Notes under the pieces: generated by a model
The model's database searches: none
The model's input: the letters and a program-made list of their open reading frames with translations, nothing else
What the model was told of the DNA's origin: nothing
Translations under genes and position numbers: made by a program
Shown: positions 9,427-39,997 of the stretch, piece by piece
How the letters are laid out: each line of letters begins with the position of its first letter
Numbering within the stretch: position 1 is the stretch's first letter
Source: Pyrodictiaceae archaeon
Lineage (GTDB): Archaea > Thermoproteota > Thermoprotei_A > Sulfolobales > Pyrodictiaceae
Length of the DNA: 64,000 nt
NCBI GenBank assembly: GCA_027036135.1
Contig: JALVSY010000016.1
Span: forward strand, 128,001 to 192,000
Direction: 5' to 3'

Positions 9427-9567
9427 AGAAACGCCGAGGCTACGCAGTAGGCCCCTGGCTCTCTCCTAGATGGGTGGGAGCCCTGTGGCCCAGGATAACT
9501 CCCCACGTATTACGGTATTTAGGCCTTTACCACGAATGCCTCAAATGACGGGACTAGGAGGGTCACT

Positions 9568-11215: not shown

Positions 11216-11302
11216 GGGATAGATGTCCTCCCGGAGGAGCAGGGGCGCTTATGTAGTATGACTCGTGGCTAGTTGTTCTCTGGGAGTAGGTGGCGAGTCC
11301 AA

Positions 11303-12868
11303 TTGCCCCTCGTCATTAAGGATGTAGGCGAGGAAGTAGGTATTGTTCTTAGCAATGCTACCTCGTCTATAGCCCCAATAGCGCTTCGGCGCGACAAGGA
11401 GCTAGCTGTCCGTGAGGAAGACCTAGTGCTTATCGAGGACGCTAACATAGGGGAAGGCTACTACATGTTAGGCGTTGTTAGATGGCTAACTCGCTACGAG
11501 CCCTTCCTGCGCAGGAGTACCCATAACGTCTACATAGAGCACCCTGAGGCCCTAACCTCTGAAGTAGTCATGCCGTTCTCTAACGCTTTTGTGGAAATCT
11601 ATGGAGCGGTTTGTGATGGTTCAAGTATCTGTGGCGGCAGGGGCTTTGTGAGCAACGTTTACCCGCCTACCCCTGGGAGCAAGGTCTATAGAGTGGTTAA
11701 TGCCGAGCACTTATCCAGCTACTTGACGGTTTCATCACCCATTAGTGTTGGCGTGCACAAGTATAGTGGCTGGAGACTGCCCCTTGACTCTGCCTGGCTT
11801 AATTACCACGTAGGAGTCTTCGGCGCCACGGGTACTGGTAAGAGCAGACTAGTCCTACGACTCTTATCCGAGATAATCCGGGCAGGTTATAACCTAATAG
11901 TGTTCGACCACAATGGTGTGGACTATGCACCCTTCGCGCAGAGACTTGGAGGCGAGGTAATTGATGCTTCTAGTATACGCATTGAGCCGCGCATATTCTC
12001 TTCAATAGTAGCAAGGCTAGTTGATGTACAGGGTATGCAACGCGACGTTGTAGAAGTTGCAGCGCTCTGCTACTCTATGAAAGTCTATAGGGACAACGGG
12101 GACAAGTACAATAAGTACTCGCTAAACGAGTGCAACAACTTCATAGGTCCGCCACGCGGCGCGACACTGACAAAGAGACAAACAAACAATAGGGAGGAGA
12201 GGAGCCCCAAGGACGAGTTCCTCTACGTGCTTGAGCGTGCCACACGGTTCCTCTATACCCGTGGAAGCGATGCTGCTCTTGTAAAGCTCAGGCTCTTAAC
12301 AAGGCTAAACGTACCTAGCCGTGTATTTGATAAGCTCCGTGAACGCGTACTAGAGCCCGAGGACATAGTCGCCAGGGCTCTAGAAAAGCACCTAGTAATC
12401 ATTGATATGAGTATAGAGCAGGACATAGAGGTAAAGAGGGGGATAATCGCCTCCATTGCTGAGGCTGTGTGGGGCCATATAGCGCAGCGGGGGGAGGCCC
12501 GGATAGGCATAGTGGTTGACGAGGCGCAGAACTATGCCTGCGAATACTGCGGTGAGTCGGCAAAAGCTCTTGAGACCGTTGCGCGGGAGGGAAGGAAGTG
12601 GAAATACTTTCTTATAGTGGCTAGTCAGCGTGTTAGCCGCGACATAAGGCCAGGTATAAGGAGCAACCTAGGTACTGTGTTCTTCTCAAAGCTACAAGCA
12701 ACCGGTGATCTCCAAGAACTCTCAGGCTACCTAGACCTAGGAAGGGTGTCCGAAGCAAATCTCGCGATGCTTAGACGTAGAGAATTCTACGCAGCGGGTC
12801 TAATGAACCCGCTTAGGAGACCCATGCTACTAGTAGTAGATGATATTAGCTCTCTGGTATCGAAATAA
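11303..12868 (+). CDS. HerA/DUF87-family ATPase (second paralog); TTG start after AGGTGG
   Basis: YHVGVFGATGTGKS, FDHNGVDY, VVDEAQNY, EGRKW, SQRVS; N-terminal HAS-barrel-like region. Confidence 0.85.
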   Translation: MPLVIKDVGEEVGIVLSNATSSIAPIALRRDKELAVREEDLVLIEDANIGEGYYMLGVVRWLTRYEPFLRRSTHNVYIEHPEALTSEVVMPFSNAFVEIYGAVCDGSSICGGRGFVSNVYPPTPGSKVYRVVNAEHLSSYLTVSSPISVGVHKYSGWRLPLDSAWLNYHVGVFGATGTGKSRLVLRLLSEIIRAGYNLIVFDHNGVDYAPFAQRLGGEVIDASSIRIEPRIFSSIVARLVDVQGMQRDVVEVAALCYSMKVYRDNGDKYNKYSLNECNNFIGPPRGATLTKRQTNNREERSPKDEFLYVLERATRFLYTRGSDAALVKLRLLTRLNVPSRVFDKLRERVLEPEDIVARALEKHLVIIDMSIEQDIEVKRGIIASIAEAVWGHIAQRGEARIGIVVDEAQNYACEYCGESAKALETVAREGRKWKYFLIVASQRVSRDIRPGIRSNLGTVFFSKLQATGDLQELSGYLDLGRVSEANLAMLRRREFYAAGLMNPLRRPMLLVVDDISSLVSK

Positions 12869-12899: not shown

Positions 12900-14105
12900 T
12901 TAGCGTTTTCTTCTTTCATAGATATACCTCTTCTCTGGATTAGTATGGCTCATTACGATTACGTGTTCTCCTCGGAGCCCTTCTTCTCGGAGCATATCAA
13001 CCAGGTGCTTGATTACTCTACGACGTACCAGTTCTAGCATGTATGACTCAAGTCTGACATAGCTATCTATGAGGTCTATTGGGTAAGGAAAACCTGTAGC
13101 TGGGTTTGTGAGCATGGATAGTATGGAGAGTATTCGCTCCATGCCGAGCCCACCGTAGTCTAATACCTCGACGCGAATGGCTTGCCGAGGGCCTTGGCGC
13201 GGTTTATAGAACGCTACCACTATATTGCCGTACTCTGGCCTCTTTTCTAACAGCTCCTTGACACCCTCTACATAGCCCTTTACGTTCTTTCCTCTCTTCT
13301 TCCTATCCTCGGCTATTATCTCGGCATACTTGGGCACGAGCTCTGAGAACCTTCCCAGCACCACATAGTTTCCGGGCTTAAGAACTATGCTCATCACTGC
13401 TTTATCGTTAAGGGGCAAGGACTCGCCATTGTTTAGGACTCTTAGGAGCCTAGAGTAGCTCCGCTTCACTACCCCAACAAGCGTTATTTTCTGTTCCCTA
13501 GCCCGCTCAAGGACACTTATAGTAGCCTTATCTAGTCTACTTAGCACCCTGCTCTTCTCGATGCTTTTCCAGGGCCGGAACAATAGCTTGTAGGGTACTA
13601 GCTCGCCGTCAAAGAGGATCATGCGTGGCCTTAGTTTTCCCTCAGCGTGTTTTCTCAGAACCCTCATAGCAATCTTTTTCTCGAGTATCTTAGCGTAGAG
13701 CGGTATACGATTCCTCATCTCCTCGTCATCCGCGAAGAGAATCTCGACAAGAGACTCTACTGGCTTCTCATCTCCTTGGGCTACGCCGCCATAGCCTATA
13801 TAGCCAGCGATGATAGCGGCTAAGTGTCCCCCGACAAGATCTACTCCCCCATCCATTGGGAAAGTAGAGTCAATAGCCACCCCTGGCAAAGGCTTATCAT
13901 AGCCAAGTACACCCCACTCAAGCTTATCAAGGATCTTCATCACTTTGTCAAAGTTGTCTCGGAACTCAATAATCCTCCCAGCAATTCTCTCAGCAAGCCT
14001 TCTGGTCTCCTCAAGCATACTTTGTACAGCGGGCGTAAACTCAACTAGCTCAGTCTCCTCATCTAGTAGTCCAAACCTACGAAGAATATCTTCCTCGCTC
14101 TCCAT
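12900..14105 (-). CDS. NurA-domain nuclease
   Basis: GVAIDST, LFDGEL, VGVVKR, GFPYPIDLID motifs; start taken at the ATG of MESEE. Confidence 0.8.
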   Translation of the reverse strand: MESEEDILRRFGLLDEETELVEFTPAVQSMLEETRRLAERIAGRIIEFRDNFDKVMKILDKLEWGVLGYDKPLPGVAIDSTFPMDGGVDLVGGHLAAIIAGYIGYGGVAQGDEKPVESLVEILFADDEEMRNRIPLYAKILEKKIAMRVLRKHAEGKLRPRMILFDGELVPYKLLFRPWKSIEKSRVLSRLDKATISVLERAREQKITLVGVVKRSYSRLLRVLNNGESLPLNDKAVMSIVLKPGNYVVLGRFSELVPKYAEIIAEDRKKRGKNVKGYVEGVKELLEKRPEYGNIVVAFYKPRQGPRQAIRVEVLDYGGLGMERILSILSMLTNPATGFPYPIDLIDSYVRLESYMLELVRRRVIKHLVDMLREEGLRGEHVIVMSHTNPEKRYIYERRKR

Positions 14106-14314
14106 TACTACTCTTCCTCGTAATAACTGGGAACCCCCAGGCAAGGAATATGGTAACGTACTACCTTGTATCACTTGCTATAGTAGGTGCAGCGTAAACT
14201 CGGTTGCTAGGTTTCACCGTCATAATACTACATTAGGTTTCGTAAGGACTACGAGTGTCCTTGATAATTTTTTAAGCTGGTATCTGTGAGTAGTGGCAAA
14301 GAGGGGGTATTGCG

Positions 14315-26813: not shown

Positions 26814-27911
26814 TACCTTGTAGGATTGCATTCTCTTAACAATTGTCGTGACGGGATCATTGCTCCAGCTAAGCTCTGGTATGAGAGCCAGCGACGCACC
26901 CATTGCTAGAGAGTTATATTCCTTGCTCCAAAGGCCTAGGAGTCTGACACAGCTAGAAGTTATACTTAATAACAATGCCTCAGCTAGTTCCCTTGCCTTG
27001 CTCCGGGAAACAGGGTGCACGGACAAATAGGCATACGATGCCTCCTCAACCACAAATGGCGGTATCCATGCCGCGTTATCTGTTCCGAGAGCCACATTGG
27101 TCTCGGCGACTAGCGCGGGGAGGAGATCAAGTCGGGGAAGCCTACCTGTGTGATACATGTTTGAGCGAGGACAGAAGATGATACCTATACCCTCCCGGGC
27201 TACTTGCATTAACTCATCATCACTGAGCATGGTTAGATGCACAACTGCATGGGGCTTAGCCTCGAGAGCCACTTTGTAATCTTCTTTCTCGTAAAGCTCC
27301 CTGGTCTCCGATACATGGACGTGAACATATCCATAGACTCGGTGAGCAAGCTGTACGAGTTCTACTAGCTCCGGCAGTGCAAGGTCGAAGACAGTATCGA
27401 GACCAACACCTCCATATTTCTCTAAAAGCTCCCTGTATTCTGTATACACTTTCTTATTTGGTTGAGCGAGTACGCGGAGGCTTAACCCATGCTTATCGGT
27501 AACACGGGCAACAAGACCGGCTCCTACCTGGCCTAGCTCAGCATATACACCGAGAAAAAGAGTTCCGCGATTCCGTATATTGGTAGCCGCAATAGAGAGT
27601 CTTTCCTCCAAGGTATCAGGGCTTAGCCTCGATAGGAGACTATACTTTAGCCCCCTTGGTAGCTCCACTAAGTCTTCTAGGCGCCTATCCTCGCCCGTCT
27701 CAGCTATGGCATAGTCCAGTAAATGGAGATGAGCATTACACAGCCCAGGAAGAATTACTACAGGGAGCTTCCTGGCCCCGGGTGGGCACCCTGGCGAAAA
27801 ACCAGCTATGACGCCGCCGTCTATCTCTATACACGGCCTAGTGACTAGCTCTATGCTCTTATCATTCGGGTTTATAGCGTAGAGTGCTTCAAAGAACACA
27901 CGGTTACTCAA
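26751..27911 (-). CDS. Metal-dependent amidohydrolase superfamily protein
   Basis: PGLCNAHLH, HVHVSE, VVHLT, CPRSN, LGTDN. Confidence 0.85.
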   Translation of the reverse strand: MSNRVFFEALYAINPNDKSIELVTRPCIEIDGGVIAGFSPGCPPGARKLPVVILPGLCNAHLHLLDYAIAETGEDRRLEDLVELPRGLKYSLLSRLSPDTLEERLSIAATNIRNRGTLFLGVYAELGQVGAGLVARVTDKHGLSLRVLAQPNKKVYTEYRELLEKYGGVGLDTVFDLALPELVELVQLAHRVYGYVHVHVSETRELYEKEDYKVALEAKPHAVVHLTMLSDDELMQVAREGIGIIFCPRSNMYHTGRLPRLDLLPALVAETNVALGTDNAAWIPPFVVEEASYAYLSVHPVSRSKARELAEALLLSITSSCVRLLGLWSKEYNSLAMGASLALIPELSWSNDPVTTIVKRMQSYKVLGVPPGEATRVIRELLGEKI

Positions 27912-28365
27912 TGAACACTGTTTCCCCGCTGAACTTTGCTTTCTCCAATGCCTTCATGCGACGAGCCAGCTTGATCGCGGCCTCTACAGCTCTCCTAGCA
28001 TAGTCATCTACTCTCTCAAGGGCTTGCATCCTGTTCATCCCTGGCCCCGAGATTCCCAGGGTTACGGGCTTCCCGTACTTCTCGGCTAGGTCCACTAGCT
28101 TCCTGGCAACCTGGTGGGCTATGACCTCGTCGTGCTTGGTGGCGCCCGTGATAATGGCTCCTAGCGCTACGACGGCATCTACATCGTCTTTGCGCAAGAG
28201 CTTCTCGACAAGCAGTGGTATATCATATGCACCGGGAGCCTTAACTACATAGGCCACTATCGCGCCAAGGAACTTGGCATGGTTCATGGCTCGCTGAAGC
28301 ATAAGGTACGTTACGTCATAATTGAACTCAGAGACAACTATACCGAGCCTAATTACTTCTGCCAC
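27904..28365 (-). CDS. ribH: 6,7-dimethyl-8-ribityllumazine synthase
   Basis: IVVSEFN, PGAYDIP, GATKHD, PVTLGISGPG. Confidence 0.95.
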   Translation of the reverse strand: MAEVIRLGIVVSEFNYDVTYLMLQRAMNHAKFLGAIVAYVVKAPGAYDIPLLVEKLLRKDDVDAVVALGAIITGATKHDEVIAHQVARKLVDLAEKYGKPVTLGISGPGMNRMQALERVDDYARRAVEAAIKLARRMKALEKAKFSGETVFIE

Positions 28366-28423
28366 TCTTCTACCCCAAGCACATCGCCACGATATGGGCC
28401 CAAAAAGTTTACTCTAAGATCCT

Positions 28424-28876
28424 CTAGGCCGTGATGATTTCCTTAAGAAGCTTTAGAGCTTCTTGTATGGCTCGACGCGCTTCTATTGATAAACCCTCGC
28501 CTATTCCTACATCTTTAACTCCGAGTAACAAGTAGACGACCTTGCCAGTGTACGAGGATATATACCTGTGCATTAATCTAGGATTAATGTTATGAGTTGT
28601 CCAGAGGATCTGAGAAGGAGGTTCATTAATTATAGTTACGCTACCTGCCTCTACGCCTAGAGCAGCATCAACTATTATTAGAAGCTTAGGTCTTATCTCC
28701 TTTATATGATGAGTACATAGTTCAAGCCCCATAGGGCATTCAAGCACGCAACTATACCTTCTTCGCCTGAGCTCCTGTACTAGATAAAGAGCCGCTGCAT
28801 CATCCCTGCGGAGAGGCGAACCAATGCCTACTACGAGTGTCTTACACTTCCTCTGTTCTCCAAGGCTTTGGTTCAC
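28424..28876 (-). CDS. Hydrogenase maturation protease
   Basis: VVGIGSPLRRDDAA, IIVDA, TTH, GEGLS. Confidence 0.88.
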   Translation of the reverse strand: MNQSLGEQRKCKTLVVGIGSPLRRDDAAALYLVQELRRRRYSCVLECPMGLELCTHHIKEIRPKLLIIVDAALGVEAGSVTIINEPPSQILWTTHNINPRLMHRYISSYTGKVVYLLLGVKDVGIGEGLSIEARRAIQEALKLLKEIITA

Positions 28877-29225
28877 GTGGATCTCCTCTTAGTAGTGCTC
28901 TCTTAAAAACCGGCGGCGGAATCTCGTTAGAAATATTATATGCTTTCCTCGGGCATATATCAATGCAATGATAGCAGAATACGCATAGACCATAATCTAT
29001 TACTGGTATTTTCTTTTTCTTCCCCCCATATGTTATCTCTGTCATCTTTATAGCTCCTGTTGGACACTCGACAGCGCATAAGCTACAACTAATACACTTA
29101 TCTGGATTAACTATGTGTAATCCCCGATATCTTTTGGTTGGATTAGGCTTAGCTTTCACCCCATACTCTATGGTAACGGGCCTTCTTAGTAGATTTTTGA
29201 GAAGTTCACGAGCCAGTTTAAGCAC
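28842..29225 (-). CDS. NuoI-like 2x[4Fe-4S] hydrogenase subunit
   Basis: YRGLH; CISCSLCAVECP and CVFCYHCIDICP. Confidence 0.9.
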   Translation of the reverse strand: MLKLARELLKNLLRRPVTIEYGVKAKPNPTKRYRGLHIVNPDKCISCSLCAVECPTGAIKMTEITYGGKKKKIPVIDYGLCVFCYHCIDICPRKAYNISNEIPPPVFKRALLRGDPREPKPWRTEEV

Positions 29226-29233
29226 TTACACCT

Positions 29234-30394
29234 TCACCTCCTCTTTCTCACAATCTTCCGAATGGGCTCCAATCGCTGCTCACCAGTTCGTTCATCTACA
29301 ACCATTATTCTCTCCATGCATGATATGCAAGGATCAAAACTCGCAAGTATCACTGGCACATCAGATAACGTTGCATCACGATAGGCAAAGACGCTGTTTA
29401 GTATATTTGTAAAGCTAGGTGTTCTTATCCTCACCCTATAGGGGGTTCTCCCACCTCTGCTCACTACGTGATATATGAGCTCGCCTCGAGGAGCTTCGAC
29501 ACGAGATATAGCTTCTCCCGGCCTAAAGGTACGCGGAGGAATTCTTAGTGCGGCTATGGGGCCTTTTGGTAGTTTGTTAATTGCTTGTCTTATTATCTTT
29601 ATTGATTCAAGTGATTCTTCTAAACGTACAAGTACTCTAGCTAAGCAATCTCCTTCCTTACGAGTTACCATATTGAAGTCCACTTCGTCGTACCAAGCGT
29701 AGGGCGTGTCTTTTCTTACATCGATTCGTACTCCGGAGGCCCTAGCTGTTGGGCCGACTAAGCCGTATAAGAGGGCTTCATTATACTTAATCACGCCTAT
29801 GTCTTCGAGTCTAAGTCTTAGGAGTTTGTCGTTCTCGTAGACGTCCCTGTAGTATAGTATTCGTTTCTCGATATAGTCTAGGGCTCGCTTTATTTTCTCT
29901 ACGATTCCGTCATCGATGTCTCTTCGAACACCGCCTGGCCACACGTAGTCGGATAAAACTCGGTTGCCAGTAACAAGTTCTTTAAGCAACATTATCTTTT
30001 CCCTATCCCTCATTATGAGCATGAAGAGACTCTCAAAACCCAGTATTTCGGCCATTACGGCGGCAAGTAGCATGTGGCTGTGAAGTCTCTCCAGCTCCAT
30101 AGCTATGGTTCGTAGAGCAAGCGCTCTTTCAGGGAGCTTAATGTTGTTCAGTTTCTCAAGGGCTTGGACATAGCATGTTGCATGCATCAAGTTGCATATG
30201 CCGCATACACGGGTCGCTATATATAGTGTTTTTAGCCACGTGTTTCTCTCAGCCAGCCACTCGATGCCTCTATGATTGTAGCCAGTCACTATGTCTACTC
30301 CTACAACCTCCTCGCCACGGACACGGACACGTAGAAGTATCGGCTCATGGAGAGCGGGGTGTTGAGGGCCTACTGGTATTTCAATTACAGGCAT
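29234..30394 (-). CDS. Group 4 [NiFe]-hydrogenase large subunit
   Basis: GPQHP, HRGIE, L1 RVCGIC, EAPRGE, L2 DPCISCMER plus C-terminal extension. Confidence 0.95.
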   Translation of the reverse strand: MPVIEIPVGPQHPALHEPILLRVRVRGEEVVGVDIVTGYNHRGIEWLAERNTWLKTLYIATRVCGICNLMHATCYVQALEKLNNIKLPERALALRTIAMELERLHSHMLLAAVMAEILGFESLFMLIMRDREKIMLLKELVTGNRVLSDYVWPGGVRRDIDDGIVEKIKRALDYIEKRILYYRDVYENDKLLRLRLEDIGVIKYNEALLYGLVGPTARASGVRIDVRKDTPYAWYDEVDFNMVTRKEGDCLARVLVRLEESLESIKIIRQAINKLPKGPIAALRIPPRTFRPGEAISRVEAPRGELIYHVVSRGGRTPYRVRIRTPSFTNILNSVFAYRDATLSDVPVILASFDPCISCMERIMVVDERTGEQRLEPIRKIVRKRR

Positions 30395-30400
30395 TGTCTT

Positions 30401-30871
30401 TCACCCCTTCCTACTTGGAGAAGCCTGCTTAAGTAAGGGCTTCATTGTACCCATGTCTGGTGGCTTAAAGAAGCCGTCGCGAAGCCACTTATTGCCCCTA
30501 AACATTACGCCAAATAGGTCGTAGATCTCCTGCTCGTAAGGCTTAGCACCTGGGACAACCTCGATGAGGGACTCGGCAATCGGCTTATCTCTAGGAACAT
30601 GGGTTCTCGCATCTATTATTGATTTATGTTTTAGAGACCAGAAGAGATAGCGTAGCTCTATTACACCCTTGTCGGGATAATCTATAGCATTAATGCTCAT
30701 TAGGTAAACCTCTCTCTCAGTTTCATCTATGAGAGCTTTTGCGAAATCTACTATGTCGCCCTGTCTCTCTAGCATCACCTCATACCTGCTGGATTCGACT
30801 CGTTTAAGCTCTAATTCCTTATCCTTAAATTTCAGCCTCAGACTCAAGTCTCTCAGCCTCGATCCTTTCAT
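30401..30871 (-). CDS. NuoC-like hydrogenase subunit
   Basis: AIDYP, YEQEIYDLFGVMFRG. Confidence 0.88.
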   Translation of the reverse strand: MKGSRLRDLSLRLKFKDKELELKRVESSRYEVMLERQGDIVDFAKALIDETEREVYLMSINAIDYPDKGVIELRYLFWSLKHKSIIDARTHVPRDKPIAESLIEVVPGAKPYEQEIYDLFGVMFRGNKWLRDGFFKPPDMGTMKPLLKQASPSRKG

Positions 30872-31370
30872 GCTTGAGGAGCTTTACGATAGCCTCGATT
30901 ATGGCATCAGGTCTCGGAGGACAACCAGGTACATAGACGTCTACTGGAACCACTTTGTCGGCTCCACCAACGACGCTGTAGCTATGCCGAAACGCGTGCC
31001 CGCTTATCGCGCAAGTACCCACGGCGATAACGTACTTAGGATTAGGGGTCTGCTCATATAATCGCTTCAGCCTCTCGGCCGCTTTTTTGGTCAAGGCACC
31101 CGTCACGATAATGATATCTGCATGGCGCGGATTAGGGGCTAGCTTTACTCCGAAACGCTCTGGATCATAGAGAGGAGTAAGAGCTGCTAAAACCTCGATG
31201 TCGCAGCCATTGCATGCGCCGGTATTGAAGTGTAGTATCCATGGCGACCTTGAAATAAGCCTAACACTGTGTGGTGGTTTTTCTCTCCCGTTTTTCTCCA
31301 TACTATCCCCATTTTCAATATTTTTGTTACTTCTTTCTGATAACATGTAACCCGGCTCTGAGCGGGTCAA
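30825..31370 (-). CDS. Hydrogenase small subunit (NuoB-like)
   Basis: CNGCDIE, PRHAD, GTCAISG, PGCPPRP. Confidence 0.93.
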   Translation of the reverse strand: MTRSEPGYMLSERSNKNIENGDSMEKNGREKPPHSVRLISRSPWILHFNTGACNGCDIEVLAALTPLYDPERFGVKLAPNPRHADIIIVTGALTKKAAERLKRLYEQTPNPKYVIAVGTCAISGHAFRHSYSVVGGADKVVPVDVYVPGCPPRPDAIIEAIVKLLKHERIEAERLESEAEI

Positions 31371-32746
31371 GGAAGCATCACTCCCAGAAGCGAGAAAATC
31401 GGGGCTGGAAGAACACCGACTACAATGGCTATAATCGCCAGAGTGAGAGGAATAAGTAGAAGTCTTCTCGGAGGCTCGCTAGGCAGACGACGAGGCGCTA
31501 TGACAACTGGTCTCCAGAATACGCGGAGCCAGTACCTAAGAGCATAGGCTGCTGCAAGGAATAACGCGATAACTAGTATTGCTATAGCTATCGGGTTTAA
31601 TGCAGCTTCGGCTAGGGCTATTATTACTGTTATTTCTCCCGGGAAGAGGGCAAAAACTGGTGCGCCTGCTAGGCTTAGGGCTGTAACGAATCCTATGAAT
31701 GCTGTCAATGGCATTGTTTTTGCATAAAGGCCCATATCCCGTATATTATCGCTTCCCGCTTGTTTAGTTAGTATTGATGCTAGGAGGAAGAATAAGGGTT
31801 TCACAATTCCATGGGCAAACATTATGTATAGCGCGCCTGCTGCAGCAAGCCTACTAAAGCTTACTAGCCCTGCGTACATGAAGCCGCCGTGGCTAATACT
31901 GCTATAAGATGCTATAAAGCCTAGACGACGCGCTAACAGCGCAGCCAATGCTCCTACGATTGCTGAAGTAGCGCCAAGCCAGAAACCAATGAATGCGGCA
32001 CTCTGAGGCAGATTAAGCCATTTTATGCTGTACAATAGCCTATAAAGACCATATGCCCCCGCACTAGTTACTATGCCAGAAATAATAGCTGCGCTCGAGC
32101 CAGGTAGAGAAGTGTATGTCCTGGGAAGCCAGGTATGAAACGGAAACACTCCAAGCTTTATTGCAAAAGCCACTAATATAAGCGAGAAAGCTACAAGCCC
32201 ATAACCTGTTCCAAGTACTGATGAGCCGAAGATCGCTGCTTTTTCTGATGCAAGTATACCTATCGCAACTAGGAGTAGTAGCGAACCTGCATGCATATAT
32301 ATGAAGAATTGTAATGCAATTCTCTTATCCCAGAGGTATACTAGGAAGGACGATGCTAGTAGCATTAGTTCCCAGAAAATGTAGAATAGAGTCAGACTAT
32401 AGGCATAGGCTAGCCCTATCATGGTAAAGTGTATAGATGTTATTGCTAGTCCAAGCTGCTCTCTCTCCTCCTTCAGCGTCCTAGCAGCCACGAGAGCAGC
32501 TGCAGAGACTATTCCGCTGAGTAATACTAAGAGAGCGGATGCGCCGTCAGCAGCTATGCACATAGGTAGGCCTAGTTGCTTTAACCAATAATAGCAGTAG
32601 GATCCTCCTTTATAGCCTAGTATTCCTAGTAAAGTAGACAGAATAATGAGTATCACAGTTGCTCTTAGCTTATTGTAGATGCTTGTCACTATAGCTAAGA
32701 GCGCCACCGCCATAGAGGCCACGAACCATATTAATGCGTCTAGCAT
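31367..32746 (-). CDS. NuoM/MrpD-like antiporter-type subunit
   Basis: FWELM, IKLGVFPFHTWLP, AHG, FPGE. Confidence 0.85.
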   Translation of the reverse strand: MLDALIWFVASMAVALLAIVTSIYNKLRATVILIILSTLLGILGYKGGSYCYYWLKQLGLPMCIAADGASALLVLLSGIVSAAALVAARTLKEEREQLGLAITSIHFTMIGLAYAYSLTLFYIFWELMLLASSFLVYLWDKRIALQFFIYMHAGSLLLLVAIGILASEKAAIFGSSVLGTGYGLVAFSLILVAFAIKLGVFPFHTWLPRTYTSLPGSSAAIISGIVTSAGAYGLYRLLYSIKWLNLPQSAAFIGFWLGATSAIVGALAALLARRLGFIASYSSISHGGFMYAGLVSFSRLAAAGALYIMFAHGIVKPLFFLLASILTKQAGSDNIRDMGLYAKTMPLTAFIGFVTALSLAGAPVFALFPGEITVIIALAEAALNPIAIAILVIALFLAAAYALRYWLRVFWRPVVIAPRRLPSEPPRRLLLIPLTLAIIAIVVGVLPAPIFSLLGVMLP

Positions 32747-32752
32747 TCCCTG

Positions 32753-34024
32753 TCACCCTATGAGATTGATTATCCCTGGATAGAGGCCTAGGAAGAGGAG
32801 AATTATGACATATATTAGAGAGAAAATATTATATCCTTTCAATATAGAGTCGCGGTTAAGACTCATCAAGTACCTCATTACATAAGCCGCCGCCACCAGG
32901 AAAAAGAAGCTAGCAGTAACTGCCATCCATGGATATCCTATTCTAGCAAAGAATGTTATTACTGAAAGCTTCGCAGTAAACCCGTAAAATGGCGGAAGCC
33001 CCATTAAGCTAAGCAAAGCTGGCACAATCGAACCAATAGTATCCTTATCCTTTACAGAGGCGAGTGCTAGAGCTAATGCCATATTACTTGACGTTATAAA
33101 GTATACCACAACATTGAAAGACACTATACCGCTAAGCGCACAAGCAACTCCAAGGAGTAATGTATAGCCAGCATCGCTCACCATGCTAAAGCCAAGCATT
33201 CTTCGTACACTTAACTGCACCAATGCCGAGAACTCGCCAATAGCCATACTAGCCGCAGCTAGTATGGCGAGAACCCAGGCAAGTATTAGTCCCATTGCCT
33301 TGGCCGCACTTATTAGTCTAAAGAACACGTAAAGGGTAGGGGCATCAACAAGGAGTATAGCTAGCGTTATTCCGACTATGGGTGCGTTAGCAGCCACGTC
33401 GGGCAGCCATGGATGGAATGGTGCAAGGCCCACCTCTAATGCGAGGCCCGTTATTAGGAAGATGAGCCCAAATACTAGGCTTGGGGTTGTTACACTGATA
33501 TCTGTAAGGCTATAGACGTGATTTGAAACGAGCAATGCTGTTCCAGCTATTACTAGCGCTCCTGCGAGTATTGACGTAAAGAAGTACTTCACAGCAGCCT
33601 CTTCGGAGCCCTTATAGCTGAGATATATGCCTGTAAGCGATAAAGCTCCAAGCTCTAACCCTAGAATCAGTATTGCCGGGTTAATAGATAAGGTTATTAT
33701 TATACCTGCATACATAGTCCAGGGTATGAGGGGGGCAACTACATGATCTATTTCGCGCCAGAGCATTGCTATAATAAGGCTAGATGATACTAAGAGGAGT
33801 ACAAGCATAGCAATACTATGCTTGTCGAAGCCGAGAAGGGGTAAACCATTAACAGTAATGACTCCGCCTCTCTGTGTAACTAGAAGTACTGCTACTAATA
33901 TTAGTGCAATAAGCGATGACATGGTTGATGTAAGTTTCTTGTCTCGTAGTAGCATCGATATAAGTGAACACAGTACTACTATGAGCGTAAGCGTGATTAG
34001 AGAGGCCTCTGGTCCAAGCATCAC
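32753..34024 (-). CDS. NuoN-like antiporter-type subunit
   Basis: EAAVKYF, APFHPWLPDV, RRMLGFS, LSLMGLPPFYGFTAK. Confidence 0.85.
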   Translation of the reverse strand: MMLGPEASLITLTLIVVLCSLISMLLRDKKLTSTMSSLIALILVAVLLVTQRGGVITVNGLPLLGFDKHSIAMLVLLLVSSSLIIAMLWREIDHVVAPLIPWTMYAGIIITLSINPAILILGLELGALSLTGIYLSYKGSEEAAVKYFFTSILAGALVIAGTALLVSNHVYSLTDISVTTPSLVFGLIFLITGLALEVGLAPFHPWLPDVAANAPIVGITLAILLVDAPTLYVFFRLISAAKAMGLILAWVLAILAAASMAIGEFSALVQLSVRRMLGFSMVSDAGYTLLLGVACALSGIVSFNVVVYFITSSNMALALALASVKDKDTIGSIVPALLSLMGLPPFYGFTAKLSVITFFARIGYPWMAVTASFFFLVAAAYVMRYLMSLNRDSILKGYNIFSLIYVIILLFLGLYPGIINLIG

Positions 34025-34028
34025 ATTC

Positions 34029-35849
34029 TCACCTTAAGAGCGCAAAGGCTGCTATTACGAGGAGAACCATACCAAGAGCGTAAAGTGCATAATACGCACT
34101 CATTCTTCCACTTCTCCTCGGCACTATGGCTTCAAGCTCACTAACAATTATTTTGATGGAATTATCTAGACCTACGTCAACTACGCGTAGCATACCTATC
34201 CCGAGCAGAGTAAAGACGAAGCGCAGCGATGGTACAAGATAATCTACGTAAAACCTATCAATGTAGAAGCCTTCTAGAAGCGTTGAGTAAATATATCTTG
34301 GCACTAAGAGCCTTCTTCTATAAGCCTCAACTACTAGTACTATACCGGTTATTGCCAGCGCTAAGGCTATGCCTATGAAGGCTATATTTGTGCTTAAATG
34401 AAGCCCCGGCCCTATTAAGATGGGTGATGCAAGCGTCAAGAACGAGAGAACTAAGAGAGCAGTTGCCATGGGTACTGGTACTCTCGTTATAGCCTCAATG
34501 CCTTCTTTTCTGGGCCTGGCCAATACTAGGTAGTAGAATAGTTTGAAGCTGTAGGCAGCAGTAATGAGCGAAGTTACTAGTAATACTATGGAGGCGGAAA
34601 GAGAGACTTTACTTACGAATATTATGAGTTCATCCTTTGTCCAGAAGCCATTGAACGGTGGAATACCTGCAAGTGCCATAGTACCGCAGAACAAGCTGAG
34701 GGCAAGAATAGGTGATTTACGTGCAACTCCCATAGTGCGTCTGAGATCTCTTGCTGTCTCGGGGCCGAGTAGGGGCTCTAGCTCATGTATTACTACTCCT
34801 ACGCAGAGGAATAGTAGGGCCTTGAATACCGCATGGCTTATGACGTGGCCTAGCGCGGTATCAACGCTACCTATAATCGCGAGTGCTGCTCCTAGCGCAG
34901 TAAATATGTAGCCTAGTTGGCTTATAGTTGAGTATGCTAGCAGTCTCTTAGCATCATATTGTGCTAGTGCTGAGAGAGCAGCATAGAGAGCCGTTATTGC
35001 ACCAACCCACATAACTATGCTGGGTAGGTACGTTGATGCAATAAGCGGTGAGAGTAATAAAGCGAGCCTCGCTATAAGATAGACGCCTGCTTTAACCATT
35101 GTAGCTGCGTGTATTAGTGCTGATACTGGTGTTGGGCCCTCCATTGCGTCTGGTAGCCATACATGGAGCGGAAGCTGCGCGCTTTTCGCAATAGCTCCTA
35201 TGAGAGCTGAGGCGAAGAACACCGAGGCTACATGAGGCGACGTCTCCTTGAGTGCTATAAGGCTTAATGTATGTGTATGTATGTAAGTATATGCTATTCC
35301 TGCAAGGAAAACTACGTCACCTAACCTTGTTGTGACAAAGGCCTTTACTCCTGCTATGCCAGCTCTCGGGCGCTCGTAGTAATGACCTATTAAGGTGAAG
35401 CTGCATAGCCCTACACCTTCCCAGAATGCATAGAGCGCGGCTATGTTGTTGGTCAGTACGAGGCCCTGCATTGATGCTATGAATAAGAGCATGAAGGCAT
35501 AGTACCTTGCATAACCAGGGTCTCTTTCCATGTAGCTTACGGAATAGAGTATGACCAGGAATCCTATTAGACCGATAATTATGCTAAAGATTTTGGAGAG
35601 GTCATCAACTACTATGCTGAAGACGGCCTTGGCTGGGATAAAGGGAGTGTATATCGAGGCTACATTGTAGACTCCTTCAAGGCCGCTTCGATAGAGCAGT
35701 ATTGAGGCTATAAGTACGACAAAGGATGCGCTAAGCGCTACTAGCTCAGATGCGCGACGCCCTATCACTCTGCCAAGGACTAGTGCTAAGGGCGTCGCCA
35801 ATAATGGTAAGAATACGAGTAATCCCAGATAATCAGCTGGACTCATCAC
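34029..35849 (-). CDS. NuoL/MrpA-like antiporter-type subunit
   Basis: WEGVG, KSAQLPLHVWLPDAMEGPTPVSALIHAATMV, HAVFKALLF, GFWTKD. Confidence 0.92.
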   Translation of the reverse strand: MMSPADYLGLLVFLPLLATPLALVLGRVIGRRASELVALSASFVVLIASILLYRSGLEGVYNVASIYTPFIPAKAVFSIVVDDLSKIFSIIIGLIGFLVILYSVSYMERDPGYARYYAFMLLFIASMQGLVLTNNIAALYAFWEGVGLCSFTLIGHYYERPRAGIAGVKAFVTTRLGDVVFLAGIAYTYIHTHTLSLIALKETSPHVASVFFASALIGAIAKSAQLPLHVWLPDAMEGPTPVSALIHAATMVKAGVYLIARLALLLSPLIASTYLPSIVMWVGAITALYAALSALAQYDAKRLLAYSTISQLGYIFTALGAALAIIGSVDTALGHVISHAVFKALLFLCVGVVIHELEPLLGPETARDLRRTMGVARKSPILALSLFCGTMALAGIPPFNGFWTKDELIIFVSKVSLSASIVLLVTSLITAAYSFKLFYYLVLARPRKEGIEAITRVPVPMATALLVLSFLTLASPILIGPGLHLSTNIAFIGIALALAITGIVLVVEAYRRRLLVPRYIYSTLLEGFYIDRFYVDYLVPSLRFVFTLLGIGMLRVVDVGLDNSIKIIVSELEAIVPRRSGRMSAYYALYALGMVLLVIAAFALLR

Positions 35850-36138
35850 GGCTTCTCACCTCCTCGGAGAAAGCATCTATAGTCGTGACACCTCTCCTCC
35901 GCGAAGCGGAGAAAGCGACGGCAGCCGCGATGCCCGCCATTACGGTTTCAATGAGGGCTAGGAACACATAGAGCCCTGTATCACCGCCTACAAGGACTAT
36001 GGATGCTGTGGCTGCTCCAGATACAAGTTCGATACCGATAAGTACCCTAAGAAATGAACTATAACGCGTAAGTGTGACTAAGCCAGCCCCTATTAATACA
36101 CCTATCACTGTAGCATAGAGCGGACAAGCCCCGGTCAC
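35833..36138 (-). CDS. NuoK-like membrane subunit
   Basis: 3 TM helices, LIGIEL and ALIET acidic residues. Confidence 0.7.
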   Translation of the reverse strand: MTGACPLYATVIGVLIGAGLVTLTRYSSFLRVLIGIELVSGAATASIVLVGGDTGLYVFLALIETVMAGIAAAVAFSASRRRGVTTIDAFSEEVRSRDESS

Positions 36139-36566
36139 GCCAGGTCACCTCGTTGTAAAAGCACTCTTACCAGGAGAAACGCGACAAGAACAATTATCGA
36201 TGATAACCCGACAAGGACGGCGCCTAACCTAGTAACGGGGCTAGGCGTGCTACACGTGAAGCGTGACGAGATTATAGCGAAGGTTAGAATAATTACAATT
36301 GCTGCAAAGATGCCAGCAATCGGCATGGCACCTAGCTCTCTGCCGGCAAGCCTAGGGGCTAGGAACATTATTGCAGCAGTAAAACCAGCTACTAATGAGA
36401 TCTGCATGATAGCTGCCGCATAGGCTCCTATGTTGAGCATGAGCAGTGCTAGGGAGATTAGTGCAACACTAGTAGCTATTATAGCTGCTTCATCACGGTT
36501 AGCCAAGGAGGCATAGACAGCTGATATAATTGCTATAAAGCCTATGAGCAAGCTGACTGCGCTCAT
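36135..36566 (-). CDS. NuoJ-like membrane subunit
   Basis: About 5 TM helices; AYAAAIMQISLVAG resembles the NuoJ A..Q...Y.G motif. Confidence 0.65.
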   Translation of the reverse strand: MSAVSLLIGFIAIISAVYASLANRDEAAIIATSVALISLALLMLNIGAYAAAIMQISLVAGFTAAIMFLAPRLAGRELGAMPIAGIFAAIVIILTFAIISSRFTCSTPSPVTRLGAVLVGLSSIIVLVAFLLVRVLLQRGDLA

Positions 36567-37531
36567 GAGGCAGCACCTCCTAGCATTAGTGATAGGAAGG
36601 CTATGAGGATCGATAGGGGTACTAGGTAGCCCCAGGAGAGCTTAATCATGTCCTTGAGTCTTATACGGGGTGTTGATGCATCAACAATTATTGATAAAAA
36701 TGCTATAACTAAGCCTATAGCGAGTAAGCTTATGACGGCAAAGACTCCTTGAGAGGGCTGTGGAGCTAGCAATAGGGATACGTAGAAGAGAAGAGCCGTT
36801 ACACCATGGACCTCGTGACCTAGTCTCATGAATGCTAGTTTTCTCCCGGAAAATTCGGCTTCAAATCCACCAGCTACCTCGGTTTCGGCTTCAGCTATTG
36901 TGAAGGGATCTTCTCCCAAATCCGCTTGAACTAGAATGAAACCTACTAGAAGAGCGAGGAGCCAGAGGGGGAAGAGGAAAGGCTTATGCGCTAATCCTTC
37001 CCAAAGCTTGGCCCTAATAACATCCATGTCTAGGGAACCTGTGGTGGCATACGCGACGCCTACAAGGCTTATCAAGCCTATATCATAGCTCATTAAGAGT
37101 CCTATGAACCTAAGCCCACCGATGACACTATATGGGCTTCTAGTAGATAGTGATGCAAGGCCGAGAAGTGCTGCTGCTAAAGAGAGACAAACAGGTATCA
37201 ATAAAGCGTTATAGCCTATATCTCCTAGGCCGCCGAGCCCCCAAGGCAGAAGGAGACATGCAAAAGCAGCAAGACTTATACTCCAAACAAGTGCTGCAGC
37301 AGCAACTGCTTCGTGCATTGTAAGTGGAGTTATGTCTTCCTTTCCAAGGAGCTTCACTATGTCTATGAGAGGCTGGGCAAATCCTCGGAGTCCCGTGTAG
37401 GTAGGTCCCATTCTATTCTGCATACGTGCCTCAATTTTACGCTTCAAAGCTTCAAAGCTCAGAGCAAGAGAAACAGCTGTCAACAAGCCCGGATATATTA
37501 GAGCGCTCACAAATAGCTCAAGAACGTTCAT
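36563..37531 (-). CDS. NuoH/HycD-like membrane subunit
   Basis: RKIEARMQNRMGP, QPLIDIVKLLGKE, PFTIAEAETEVAGG, PRIR. Confidence 0.92.
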   Translation of the reverse strand: MNVLELFVSALIYPGLLTAVSLALSFEALKRKIEARMQNRMGPTYTGLRGFAQPLIDIVKLLGKEDITPLTMHEAVAAAALVWSISLAAFACLLLPWGLGGLGDIGYNALLIPVCLSLAAALLGLASLSTRSPYSVIGGLRFIGLLMSYDIGLISLVGVAYATTGSLDMDVIRAKLWEGLAHKPFLFPLWLLALLVGFILVQADLGEDPFTIAEAETEVAGGFEAEFSGRKLAFMRLGHEVHGVTALLFYVSLLLAPQPSQGVFAVISLLAIGLVIAFLSIIVDASTPRIRLKDMIKLSWGYLVPLSILIAFLSLMLGGAAS

Positions 37532-37844
37532 ACTTCCTCCCCGCGACTAATAGGGGAGGGACAAAAGCCACTACAAGCAATGGGAGCAAAGCGAGCCTAT
37601 CCCGGGTAGCGCAGAAGAACGACGCTATGGGCACCGACTCCGCTATGGCAAATACTACCAATACTATGGGGTACGGTGGGTCAAGGCTCTTAGCTTCCTG
37701 GCCTTTTTCACCACATGCATAAGGTAGTGTAGCTTCTCCCCGTCTCCTAGGTCTAGGGGCTAGTATGAATGCTGCTATGTAGTACGCAGTGGATGCTATT
37801 AATATTAGCGTGAAAGCAGCGAGATAGTAAAAATACTGGGCCAA
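37518..37844 (-). CDS. NuoA-like membrane subunit
   Basis: 3 TM helices with PYACGE loop. Confidence 0.7.
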   Translation of the reverse strand: MAQYFYYLAAFTLILIASTAYYIAAFILAPRPRRRGEATLPYACGEKGQEAKSLDPPYPIVLVVFAIAESVPIASFFCATRDRLALLPLLVVAFVPPLLVAGRKYERS

Positions 37845-37992
37845 AACCCTTTCCCATTATTAATAGGAATAATTACGTTCTATTTATTTATTGCACCGTT
37901 CACACCAAGAATGGTACTCGCCTACCATACGTACATAATAAAACTTATTCACTGTTATTTTAGTGTACAAGGAAAATAACTAAAGCATAATC

Positions 37993-38469
37993 TTAAGGAA
38001 TTATTGGGCCTGCGTCTGGATAGCCTTGCCTTCGCCCTGTGCCTGCTCGTCTCGTTAATTCCTCGGGGTTTCTTAGCAATAGGTAAAGGTTTTCGGCGTG
38101 CTTTTTTGCCCTATCCACGGCTATTCTGTACAATTCTTTTTCGCTGCTGGTCTCGTCCTCGTGCACTGTTACATCTATTATTGGTTTCTCTAGCTCTAGC
38201 TCAACTAGCTGTATCGCGAGGGAGTAGACTGCATAACTGATTTTGTCGGTGAGGCTCTTCCCTACCCAGCCGAAGACGATGCCCGCCTCGCATTCCTGCT
38301 CCTTCATGAGCCGCTTTATCGCCACGGGTATGTCCTTGATCCCGGGCACTGTTCTTCGCACTATTACTGCGTCAGGCATAAGTAGCTGAAGAGTCTCGAT
38401 CGCGTGTTTAGCCATGTCTACTCTAGCAAAGGTTGTATCTACAATACAGATCTTCGCCAAGGTTCTCAA
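37993..38469 (-). CDS. ribC: Archaeal riboflavin synthase
   Basis: DTTFARVDM, TVPGIKD, VHEDE, AGTGRRQG. Confidence 0.93.
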   Translation of the reverse strand: MRTLAKICIVDTTFARVDMAKHAIETLQLLMPDAVIVRRTVPGIKDIPVAIKRLMKEQECEAGIVFGWVGKSLTDKISYAVYSLAIQLVELELEKPIIDVTVHEDETSSEKELYRIAVDRAKKHAENLYLLLRNPEELTRRAGTGRRQGYPDAGPIIP

Positions 38470-39130
38470 CCTCCCTTATTATCCGGCTTCCCTCGAGGAG
38501 TACAAGGCCTCTTTCCTCGGCAATTTTCCTAGCCTTCTCTACGCTTAGTGCTGTTCCCTTGTCAAGCATCTCAACTATAACAGTTGAAGGTGTTAACCCT
38601 GCGAGCATTGCTAGGTGCAGAGATAGCTCGGTGTGCCCTCTTCTCTCACTTAGCCTTCTTCCCAGAAGTATCGGTACGTGGCCCGGGGCTACGAAGTTCT
38701 CGTAGAAATAGTGCTTGGCTTCATCGATACTACCGTTTATTATCATGCCGAGGACTTTGTCTAGTTCCCTTATTGTTAATGCTCTATCATTATCCCTTAT
38801 GCCTGTCTTGGCCCTGGCGCTGTTTACCCATATGGAGAAGGCTGGCTTGTCGCCGTAGCCTAGTGTGCGCCTCGTTAGTGGAGCCAGTTCTGGTATTGAG
38901 GCATATATCTCGTGGGCGTATGCAAGGCCCAGTTTCCTCCCAGCAAGGAGTGGCATGGAGTAACATATTAGGCCCCCTGCAAGCGTCCTCATCTCATAGA
39001 TGGTCTCGGGTGTGACGAACGAGGCGTGAATAACATAGTCTACTTCGTTCTCTCTTCTATAATCATCGTGTATTAGGACGGGCTTGCCTAGGCGGAGAGC
39101 CCGGATAGCTTCCTCTAGTACAGAGTCCAT
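38423..39130 (-). CDS. ribB: 3,4-dihydroxy-2-butanone-4-phosphate synthase
   Basis: DDYRRENEVD, GGLIC, TGIRDNDRA, PGHV, RRGHTE. Confidence 0.93.
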   Translation of the reverse strand: MDSVLEEAIRALRLGKPVLIHDDYRRENEVDYVIHASFVTPETIYEMRTLAGGLICYSMPLLAGRKLGLAYAHEIYASIPELAPLTRRTLGYGDKPAFSIWVNSARAKTGIRDNDRALTIRELDKVLGMIINGSIDEAKHYFYENFVAPGHVPILLGRRLSERRGHTELSLHLAMLAGLTPSTVIVEMLDKGTALSVEKARKIAEERGLVLLEGSRIIREVENLGEDLYCRYNLC

Positions 39131-39238
39131 AACTACCAAGCGCCTCCTCGATAACTGCTCCGGGTACGTGCCCCGCACCACGGCGGAGCCAGAGATTGTC
39201 TACGAGTCCTTACTCCAGCTCGGGCTCCCCTAAACACT

Positions 39239-39997
39239 TTAGCTCTCCACTAATCGTCTTAGTCTCTCCGAGAGACAAGGCTCGATGGGCGGCTCCTCTA
39301 GCCGTGACTCGCAGCACTTACTAAGCACTGTATATGCGACGTGTACGCATTGCCCACAGGGGCAGAGCTCTACACAGCTAAGCCTTAGCCTTGGGGACCC
39401 AGAGCGATCACGGAACCCTATGCCTATATAGTCATTAACTATGCTTACCCCGGCTCCAAATACATAGGGCGTTATTGTTGCTCTTAGTTCATCAACGACA
39501 TGTTGTCGTAGAAGGCTGTAGTTCAGTGCGCCCCCTCCTTCGACGAGGACACTCTTGATATCATAGTTTTCTGCAAGTATTTGTAGTGCTTCCCGTAGGT
39601 CTACTTCACCTCTATCACCAAGAGTATTTATTTTCACGACGTCTGCTCCGAGCTCTCTTATCTTCTCGATCTTCTCCTTGTCATTACTAGCTGTTATTAC
39701 TATTACTTTTGGCCCTGGTTCACGGAAGATGCGTTGATTTGGGCTAACTCTTAGTTTTCCGTCAACGATTACTCGGTAGTACTTTGTTGTCCTGGGCTCT
39801 AGTCGCTTACGCAACGTAGAATCATCAATAATAATCGTGTTTGCTCCGACCATTACTGCTTCGTGAGCGCCTCTTAGGAGCCGGAGCCTGGCCAAGTCGT
39901 AGTTGCAGCTTAGCTCGCTAAATCTCGTGGAGGAGGCTATGCGTCCATCAATAGTCATGGTCGAGAATATCGTGACGTAGGGGCGCTGGCTCATCAT
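39239..39997 (-). CDS. Pyrimidine nucleotide reductase (Rib7/RibD C-terminal/ArfC)
   Basis: MTIDGRIA, VMVGANT, VLVEGG. Confidence 0.88.
   Translation of the reverse strand: MMSQRPYVTIFSTMTIDGRIASSTRFSELSCNYDLARLRLLRGAHEAVMVGANTIIIDDSTLRKRLEPRTTKYYRVIVDGKLRVSPNQRIFREPGPKVIVITASNDKEKIEKIRELGADVVKINTLGDRGEVDLREALQILAENYDIKSVLVEGGGALNYSLLRQHVVDELRATITPYVFGAGVSIVNDYIGIGFRDRSGSPRLRLSCVELCPCGQCVHVAYTVLSKCCESRLEEPPIEPCLSERLRRLVES

Follow-up and report, generated by a model that had tools for sequence, protein, structure and literature searches.

A probable Hfo-type energy-converting [NiFe]-hydrogenase with three Nuo-class antiporter-like subunits in a Pyrodictiaceae archaeon

The operon and its catalytic subunits

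Here we describe an operon of twelve genes that probably encodes a membrane-bound, energy-converting group 4 [NiFe]-hydrogenase of the Hfo (Fpo/Nuo-like) type. It lies in a 64,000-nucleotide stretch of DNA from a Pyrodictiaceae archaeon (assembly GCA_027036135.1, contig JALVSY010000016.1, positions 128,001 to 192,000 of the forward strand), which is referred to throughout as the window. The source is a hydrothermal-vent archaeon whose genome is rated 99.6% complete. Positions 28424-37844 are packed end to end on the minus strand by twelve open reading frames (ORFs), with adjacent ORFs overlapping by 4-47 nt or separated by 4-8 nt, and they are transcribed in the order A, H, J, K, L, N, M, B, C, D, I, protease. 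An initial annotation, made from the sequence alone, had proposed an A-H-J-K-L-N-M-B-C-D-I operon followed by a maturation protease gene, and this layout is confirmed. The features are listed below in the direction of transcription (aa, amino acids; TM, transmembrane helix).

37845-37992, minus strand: AT-rich upstream region, possible promoter (direct reading of the sequence)
37518-37844, minus strand: A, NuoA-like (tentative), 108 aa (position, weak hhalign match, helix count)
36563-37531, minus strand: H, NuoH/MbhM-type, 322 aa (Pfam NADHdh, 189.9 bits)
36135-36566, minus strand: J, NuoJ-like (tentative), 143 aa (position, weak hhalign match, helix count)
35833-36138, minus strand: K, NuoK-like, 101 aa (Oxidored_q2 match below cut-off; invariant Glu)
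34029-35849, minus strand: L, NuoL class including the C-terminal extension, 606 aa (Proton_antipo_M, 249.8 bits; Proton_antipo_N, 47.1 bits)
32753-34024, minus strand: N, NuoN class with acidic TM7/TM8 residues, 423 aa (Proton_antipo_M, 67.4 bits)
31367-32746, minus strand: M, NuoM class, 459 aa (Proton_antipo_M, 130.6 bits)
30825-31370, minus strand: B, hydrogenase small subunit, 181 aa (Oxidored_q6, 121.5 bits)
30401-30871, minus strand: C, NuoC-like, 156 aa (Complex1_30kDa, 71.8 bits)
29234-30394, minus strand: D, [NiFe] large subunit, 386 aa (Complex1_49kDa, 257.8 bits; NiFeSe_Hases, 42.8 bits)
28842-29225, minus strand: I, 127 aa, two [4Fe-4S] motifs (Pfam Fer4 families)
28424-28876, minus strand: HycI-type maturation endopeptidase, 150 aa (TIGR00072 match)
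28348-37993, no strand assigned: 9.65-kb segment not found in a complete same-genus genome (blastn)

The AT-rich region ahead of A is a possible promoter, and a AATAAATAAATA stretch is found about 40-50 nt upstream of the operon's TTG start. In a single pairwise comparison with the copy in the same-genus genome G105, the ratio of nonsynonymous to synonymous substitution rates (dN/dS) ranges from 0.03 to 0.46 across all 12 genes.

The hydrogenase assignment is carried by the catalytic subunits. D has the motif RVCGIC toward its N-terminus and DPCISCMER toward its C-terminus, the latter followed by a 24-residue tail, and the cysteines C64, C67, C356, and C359 are invariant in 17 homologues. Its top match in the PDB is MbhL (6cfw_L, 242.9 bits), while NuoD and FpoD, treated in the same analysis, have neither Ni-binding motif. 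The first cluster motif of B, CNGCDIE, aligns with CNGCEIE of HycG at a position where NuoB and FpoB have CC, and together with GTCAISG and PGCPP it aligns with both HycG and HyfI. The best NCBIfam matches of I among respiratory-complex models are those of NuoI and FpoI, every one of them below cut-off. The adjoining protease passes the cut-off of NCBIfam TIGR00072 (57.8 bits against 47.45), although its Pfam score falls short (19.3 bits against 23); BLASTP aligns it almost end to end with E. coli HycI (E 9e-8), and D25/D26, D70, and H95 are invariant in its alignment. HypD is also encoded in the genome. The Ni motifs of D, the CxxC of B, and a tail accompanied by a protease and HypD are the marks of a group 4 [NiFe]-hydrogenase, and the four Ni-ligand cysteines together with the CxxC of B set the operon apart from complex I or Fpo proper. 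The earlier view that the large subunit belongs to a hydrogenase and is not a NuoD is therefore upheld by the four Ni-binding cysteines, the 24-aa tail, the CxxC of B, and the adjoining protease. The initial annotation had further counted a complete set of eleven subunits, which stands for the eight identified by Pfam matches above cut-off or by trees and for K, placed by alignment, whereas A and J can be connected to their namesakes less securely.

The membrane arm and its acidic N subunit

The arm of the predicted complex contains three antiporter-like subunits. L scores 414.3 bits against TIGR01974 (NDH_I_L), above the cut-off of 407.5, and matches Nqo12 (12-598) and E. coli NuoL over its full length; its PDB matches rank as NdhF (290.5 bits), Nqo12 (265.8), NuoL (243.4), MrpA (209.4), MbhH (159.5), and HycC (73.7). 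The top PDB match of M is E. coli NuoM (122.8 bits), and those of N are ND2 (57.3 bits) and NuoN (53.7 bits). An IQ-TREE analysis of 50 rows placed the L clade as sister to NuoL/FpoL plus the organism's own Nuo L (99/98), N with NuoN/FpoN (95/88), and M within the NuoM/FpoM class (96/87); a separate clade (100/100) comprised the single antiporter subunits of Mbh-like clusters, and HyfB/D/F, HycC, and EchA fell elsewhere than the window's L, M, and N. When the hydrogenase-linked subunits of five further lineages with differing gene orders were added in a quick tree of 65 rows, hydrogenase-linked L (8 rows), M (9), and N (9) each formed a single clade (approximate likelihood-ratio support, SH-aLRT, of 98, 100, and 100), sister to, and not within, the Nuo/Fpo clade of its class. 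Thermococcales Mbh/Mbs and Bacillus Mrp sequences are compared through PDB scores only, and the trees leave aside the 1095-aa fused protein of locus L054 and the 1270-1294-aa CooM-type proteins of L026, L040, and L067. Trees and PDB ranks together show the three putative antiporter subunits to be counterparts of NuoL, NuoM, and NuoN, so that the proposed complex I/Fpo-type set withstands the comparison with Mbh-like and Hyf subunits on which it had been staked.

The small membrane subunits are more divergent. H sits on a long stem in the H tree with no settled place. K reaches 23.3 bits (E 5.4e-5) against Pfam Oxidored_q2 and misses the cut-off of 26.1, but its E37, equivalent to NuoK Glu36 in TM2, is invariant in an alignment of eight sequences; it also has an acidic residue in TM3 and a C-terminal Arg common to the alignment. 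Neither A nor J matches any Pfam or NCBIfam family. Aligned with hhalign against small NuoA/FpoA and NuoJ/FpoJ alignments, A gave a probability of 72% (E 3.4e-5) over TM1, the PYxCGE loop, and TM2, and J a probability of 42% (E 2.6e-4) over TM1-3. AlphaFold2 models of low confidence, used for helix counts only, gave three helices for A and five for J (predicted local distance difference test, pLDDT, 61.6 and 58.4). Both genes keep their places in orthologous operons, with A as the first gene. On position, topology, weak profile matches, and conserved places we tentatively call A NuoA-like and J NuoJ-like. Structure prediction of the complex, a check suggested in the initial annotation, lent the placing of J weak support: J as partner of H, A, and K scored 0.60 against 0.19 for the best of three controls, with contact agreement among runs of at least 93% and a partner pLDDT of at least 69. 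Of 80 solved complexes 58 pass the same mark, as do 2 of 110 mismatched pairs, and passing scores no higher than 0.60 came from only 7 of the 80 solved complexes and from both passing mismatches. The pass of J may thus reflect resemblance to solved similar complexes and not binding.

Residues important for ion translocation were compared using the E. coli numbers of the complex I literature, which were verified on the E. coli sequences. L keeps all ten checked positions (E144, D178, K222, H247, D299, H335, H339, K343, K405, and D406). M keeps E126 (TM5), K197 (TM7), H286, H312, and E371 (TM12), with S228 at the position of the TM8 Lys. A Gly occupies the corresponding NuoM K265 position in the organism's own Nuo (L120, G000:C7:652000-670000) and in two other archaeal or metagenomic clusters of Nuo/Fpo-like type (L147 and L178), so loss of this Lys is not special to hydrogenase-linked M subunits. 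N, aligned by anchoring on its PFHxWLPD and GFxxK motifs, keeps E124 (TM5), K146, and K352 (TM12), but has E197 at the NuoN K217 position (TM7) and D227 at the K247 position (TM8). This acidic replacement is present in all eight aligned hydrogenase-linked N subunits and also in L115, compared with none of four Nuo/Fpo references, and an additional Asp at the NuoN H305 position is usual in hydrogenase-linked N.

The same pattern was seen on a larger scale. When 1.84 billion representative proteins were searched with a profile built from six N orthologues, five clusters were retrieved at 292-630 bits, the next match scoring 178 bits; at the two NuoN positions, the 61 best of the 150 representatives listed have Glu plus Asp in 10, Lys plus Lys in 48, and a mixture in 3. 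A metagenome scan with an acidic-type N alignment yielded 80 loci, and an acidic TM7 residue was found in N at all eight with a Cys-bearing D, compared with Lys at all 13 that have a Cys-less D and a motif-bearing ORF. The others comprise 53 with Lys and no D gene, five with neither, and one with a Cys-less D and no motif-bearing ORF; because the 80 loci include close relatives, these counts describe a pattern and do not constitute a test. For a distant acidic-N protein, P0245, the 401-genome phylum sample returned only known genomes, and its context was supplied by the metagenome loci. Titles and abstracts retrieved in our literature searches do not mention acidic TM7/TM8 residues in hydrogenase-linked N, and the words lysine, glutamate, NuoN, FpoN, and transmembrane do not occur in the available text of the paper describing Hfo, figures and supplements lying outside that check (Loh et al., 2021; PMC7886697).

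It is possible, though we hold it to be on the unlikely side, that the L/N/M arm linked to hydrogenases forms a separate lineage, the sister group of the complex I/Fpo arm, with an acidic N as its hallmark. The string of carboxylates in N could passively extend the H/A/J/K carboxylate relay, or it could provide a site for a cation (Na+). If this is true, either role would lower the ion-to-electron ratio to what ferredoxin-to-proton energy affords, the switch from acidic residues to Lys in N would mark the step from a low-energy hydrogenase to a high-energy quinone reductase, and Hfo-type enzymes would be the closest living model of the complex I ancestor.

Predicted function and direction

We read the locus as most probably encoding an Hfo-type hydrogenase that couples ferredoxin to protons. 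No Mrp, NuoE/F/G, or FpoF family is present among the 12 ORFs or the flanking genes examined, a search that did not extend to the rest of the genome, and the link to ferredoxin is presumed. Reduced ferredoxin, formed by the genome's 2-oxoacid:ferredoxin oxidoreductases, would supply electrons that travel by way of I and then B to the NiFe site, where protons would be reduced to H2, and the free energy would be conveyed via H/A/J/K to N, M, and L, which would move ions outward. Electron transfer from ferredoxin to protons releases far less free energy than transfer from NADH to quinone, and a four-ion stoichiometry would therefore not be affordable. This small yield and the changes in N and M suggest that not all three modules pump in the way they do in complex I.

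Several points weigh against this reading. The ties of A and J to NuoA and NuoJ are weak, and profiles of five sequences for each retrieved nothing credible from PDB sequences, with chance-level or zero matches. N is without the TM7 and TM8 Lys and M without the TM8 Lys, which makes pumping by these two subunits uncertain. The operon contains no ferredoxin gene, and none of the RNA runs listed contains the operon stretch. In the complete same-genus genome G066 the operon is absent and the two flanking riboflavin genes adjoin, so it is dispensable. Finally, the genome encodes other hydrogenases, namely a 650-aa group-1-like large subunit and a 485-aa Vhu/Shy-like (group-3-like) large subunit on contig C30, and H2 uptake may consequently be part of the organism's physiology, making the reverse direction plausible.

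The hydrogenase reaction is presumably reversible. H2 evolution has, in our judgment, slightly better than even chances of being its main direction in this organism. The gene content fits a heterotrophic life in which 2-oxoacids yield reduced ferredoxin, which can be disposed of as H2. That the same enzyme works mainly in reverse, an ion gradient driving H2-dependent ferredoxin reduction for biosynthesis, is less probable but a serious contender. H2-dependent ferredoxin reduction is known for Eha/Ehb and Ech in methanogens. The large subunit of the group-1-like uptake hydrogenase and HypD are encoded within 20 kb upstream of the window (G000:C16:110793-112544 and C16:121354-122439, 6-17 kb before its start), and an arm of several modules would supply a large driving force for an uphill reaction. 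This direction has also been argued for the Hfo of Bathyarchaeia (Loh et al., 2021; PMC7886697). However, the six POR_N matches in the genome point to ample catabolic reduction of ferredoxin, and neither a carbon monoxide dehydrogenase (CODH) family match nor a match to HpaB_N, taken here as a marker for 4-hydroxybutyryl-CoA dehydratase, was found in this 99.6% complete genome, these being the only such marker families searched. Autotrophy by the routes that CODH and HpaB_N mark is thus not supported by the predicted gene content.

Distribution, origin and known relatives

D shares 95% identity with its counterpart in G105 and 72% with proteins that bear the names Pyrodictium abyssi and P. delaneyi. 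The complete A-H-J-K-L-N-M-B-C-D-I order also occurs in G105, G046, G036, and G010, and in part in G098, where the contig ends, so that it is conserved in six genomes, the window's included, and in one metagenome lineage (L171-L173), where the protease gene is divergent and upstream. Other metagenome loci have different arrangements: B-C-D-H-I-J-K-L-N-M (L174-L176), A-B-C-D-H-I-K-L-N-M (L177), and I-D-C-B on one strand with P-A-H-N-L-M on the other (L179). A Cys-bearing D with a tail is found throughout the hydrogenase-linked loci L171-L177 and L179. At E <= 1e-25 the N query matched 7 of 325 genomes of the order and 4 of 401 in the phylum sample, none beyond those already found; the Hfo-type complex is rare and patchy in the order. 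The whole operon is present in G010, which belongs to another family (L117, G010:C1:1-15000; NCBI name of its N protein, Desulfurococcus sp.), and its D, L, M, and N nest among Pyrodictium copies in every tree, which looks like a transfer between families. G010 additionally encodes an Mbh-like D of 56% identity.

In the window the operon occupies an indel. Comparison by blastn matched 27643-28347 and 37994-39088 to 9501-10215 and 10344-11438 of L156, in the complete same-genus genome. The operon splits a riboflavin cluster (27904-28365 and 37993-39997), with DMRL synthase on one side and a DMRL-synthase-like gene, DHBP synthase, and RibD_C on the other. The GC content is 0.44-0.48 within the indel versus 0.50-0.52 in its flanks, and neither flanking direct repeats nor a nearby tRNA were found at its borders. 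The distance between the operon and the ribH homologue is about 470 kb in G046 and G036. Elsewhere the window contains two HerA-type helicase genes and a NurA nuclease gene (844-3054, 11273-12868, and 12900-14174) along with housekeeping genes (exosome subunits, proteasome alpha, SBDS, ThiI, RNase P Rpp14, GluRS, and a polyprenyl synthase).

Judged by these trees, the catalytic module is one common to Mbh-like enzymes, and the hydrogenase-linked arm is old and coherent because its L, M, and N each form one clade. A D tree of 48 rows placed the window's protein in a 6-row clade (100/100) inside a 21-row clade with Desulfurococcales hydrogenases (100/100), and a D tree of 55 rows has a 30-row clade (98) in which Hfo-type rows are interspersed with Mbh-type ones; the D trees cover 34 of 80 genome-contig loci (L004-L024, L054, three Coo-type, and nine Ech-type). 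Thirteen of the 80 loci have B-C-D-I, a gap of about 3 kb, an antiporter subunit of about 530 aa, and then H, and at the Thermosphaera locus the gap genes (MrpF, MrpG, MbhD, MnhB, MrpC-like, and MnhE) make up an Mbh-type arm. One could therefore picture a recent chimera within Pyrodictiaceae, in which an Mbh-type B-C-D-I module exchanged its Mrp arm for a captured A-H-J-K-L-N-M block of the Nuo-like kind. The nesting of the two D clades in the 48-row tree would agree with this, as would the related Desulfurococcales loci with B-C-D-I, Mrp F/G/B/C/E genes, one antiporter subunit, and H, and a gene order in which the membrane block adjoins the BCDI block. We nonetheless consider such a chimera improbable, since the identical order recurs in the unrelated metagenome lineage L171-L173, the hydrogenase-linked L, M, and N of five further lineages form single clades outside Nuo/Fpo, and the arm subunits are far from the organism's own Nuo subunits. 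The interleaving of Hfo-type and Mbh-type D rows, moreover, makes the direction of change unreadable, and which arm came first is not readable from unrooted trees. The metagenome loci and the extended L/M/N and D trees thus weaken the case for an arm replacement within Pyrodictiaceae. Two further arrangements were observed. L119/L167 (G003:C2:38000-66000) is a lone B-C-D-I module, its D 60% identical to that of the window, around which, for about 15 kb downstream and about 10 kb upstream, neither H nor any antiporter-like or Mrp-type gene was detected. At L021, on a Desulfurococcaceae contig, Mbh-like antiporter subunits of 532 and 540 aa that are each other's closest relatives flank the B-C-D-I genes.

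Least credible of all is that the complex is no hydrogenase but a relative reducing quinone, sulfur, or another acceptor (Nuo, Fpo, Mbx/Mbs, Ehr), since the one hint of this, that the highest NCBIfam score of D is to the NuoD model (350.7 bits, just short of the cut-off of 360), is set against its four Ni-ligand cysteines, cleavable tail, and adjacent protease, a B with CxxC as in HycG/HyfI and not the CC of NuoB/FpoB, the lack of both Ni motifs in NuoD and FpoD, and the organism's separate canonical Nuo cluster.

Complex I is thought to descend from membrane-bound hydrogenases, and we know of no studied enzyme that represents the transition between a hydrogenase with one antiporter and a pump with three. 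Hfo-type enzymes fill this gap on paper only. The present locus adds a Pyrodictiaceae-related example from the near-complete genome of a vent archaeon, and as cultured Pyrodictium carriers with complete genomes exist (G036 and G046), purification and cryo-electron microscopy are realistic. The acidic replacement of two key lysines in N leads to a hypothesis that can be addressed by mutation, namely that ion stoichiometry is matched to the driving force. What is new here is a conserved alternative gene order, the rare and patchy distribution, the indel context, the orthology of L, M, and N at the level of classes, backed by support values, and the acidic N signature.

The operon itself is a further example of the genome-known Hfo type and not a new kind of enzyme. 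Hfo was described as the first [NiFe] hydrogenase to share all 11 subunits with Fpo/Nuo, its D subunit was classed in subgroup 4g, P. delaneyi and Ca. Methanomethylicus were named among carriers of Hfo-like clusters, and the P. delaneyi homologue was placed beside subgroup 4g-6 (Loh et al., 2021; PMC7886697). The suggestion of a 4g-like enzyme agrees with the literature. Two further papers concur that the definition of 4g is loose, one of them, from 2026, finding the subgroup polyphyletic (PMC13582414). The novelty implied by the initial annotation, on the other hand, does not hold, as the 11-subunit architecture was published in 2021 with Pyrodictium named; in our literature searches this was the only description of the architecture (PMC7886697). 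The same source states that no 4g enzyme has been characterized and describes Hfo from genomes only; a characterized enzyme of this composition, which would have told against the initial annotation, is therefore not known. The background given in the initial annotation for Ech, the membrane-bound hydrogenase (MBH) of Thermococcales, and complex I omitted multi-antiporter hydrogenases, namely E. coli Hyf and the Aminicenantes-type L024.

Like Hfo as described in 2021, the window's operon has eleven subunits homologous to Nuo/Fpo (A and J tentatively), a Cys-bearing D, and no Mrp, NADH, or F420 module. Its D is 72% identical to the P. delaneyi protein, and the operon of G036 has the same order. 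The Hfo of Bathy-6 has the Fpo order A-B-C-D-H-I-J-K-L-M-N, unlike the A-H-J-K-L-N-M-B-C-D-I plus protease of the window, a relation taken from the published description and not from sequences (PMC7886697). Versions in Fpo order were seen at the metagenome loci L174-L177.

MbhL of the P. furiosus MBH (6CFW) is the best solved match for D; the tail of D and a presumed ferredoxin donor are further common points, and with the Desulfurococcales Mbh-like 4g enzymes the window's enzyme shares a D clade. Mrp-linked MBH, however, combines subunits of MrpF/G/B/C/E type with one antiporter, whereas the window encodes three Nuo-class antiporters and no Mrp family. Ech (group 4e) is likewise of the ferredoxin-linked group 4 type, and its D is 40-46% identical to that of the window, but it has six subunits with one antiporter-like, and its large subunit ends at DPCxxCxER without a tail. 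E. coli Hyf/Hyc (group 4a) resembles the window's enzyme in belonging to group 4, in the tail of D, and in a HycI-type protease, and Hyf also has three antiporter-like subunits. Yet HyfB/D/F and HycC fall in other clades, there is no formate dehydrogenase partner at the window operon, and HyfG/HycE are fused C-D proteins of 555-569 aa on a distant branch, in contrast to the unfused D of 386 aa. Three antiporter-like genes and K, followed by B-C-D-H-I, were also seen in L024 (Aminicenantes) and L023 (Chrysiogenales), with a Cys-bearing D that has a long tail and with antiporter subunits outside the window-type L, M, and N clades. L150 (Methanosarcina, G121:C20) encodes B, a fused C-D without Ni ligands, and two antiporters grouping with HyfF and HyfB/HycC, and may be an Ehr-like complex.

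With complex I (Nuo/Nqo) and Fpo the window's enzyme has in common the A/H/J/K/L/M/N/B/C/D/I set and the C-terminal extension of L. It differs from them in a D that is predicted to bind NiFe instead of forming a quinone site, in the CxxC of B, and in an operon without NuoEFG or FpoF, and from complex I also in an N subunit that has E and D where NuoN has its TM7 and TM8 lysines.

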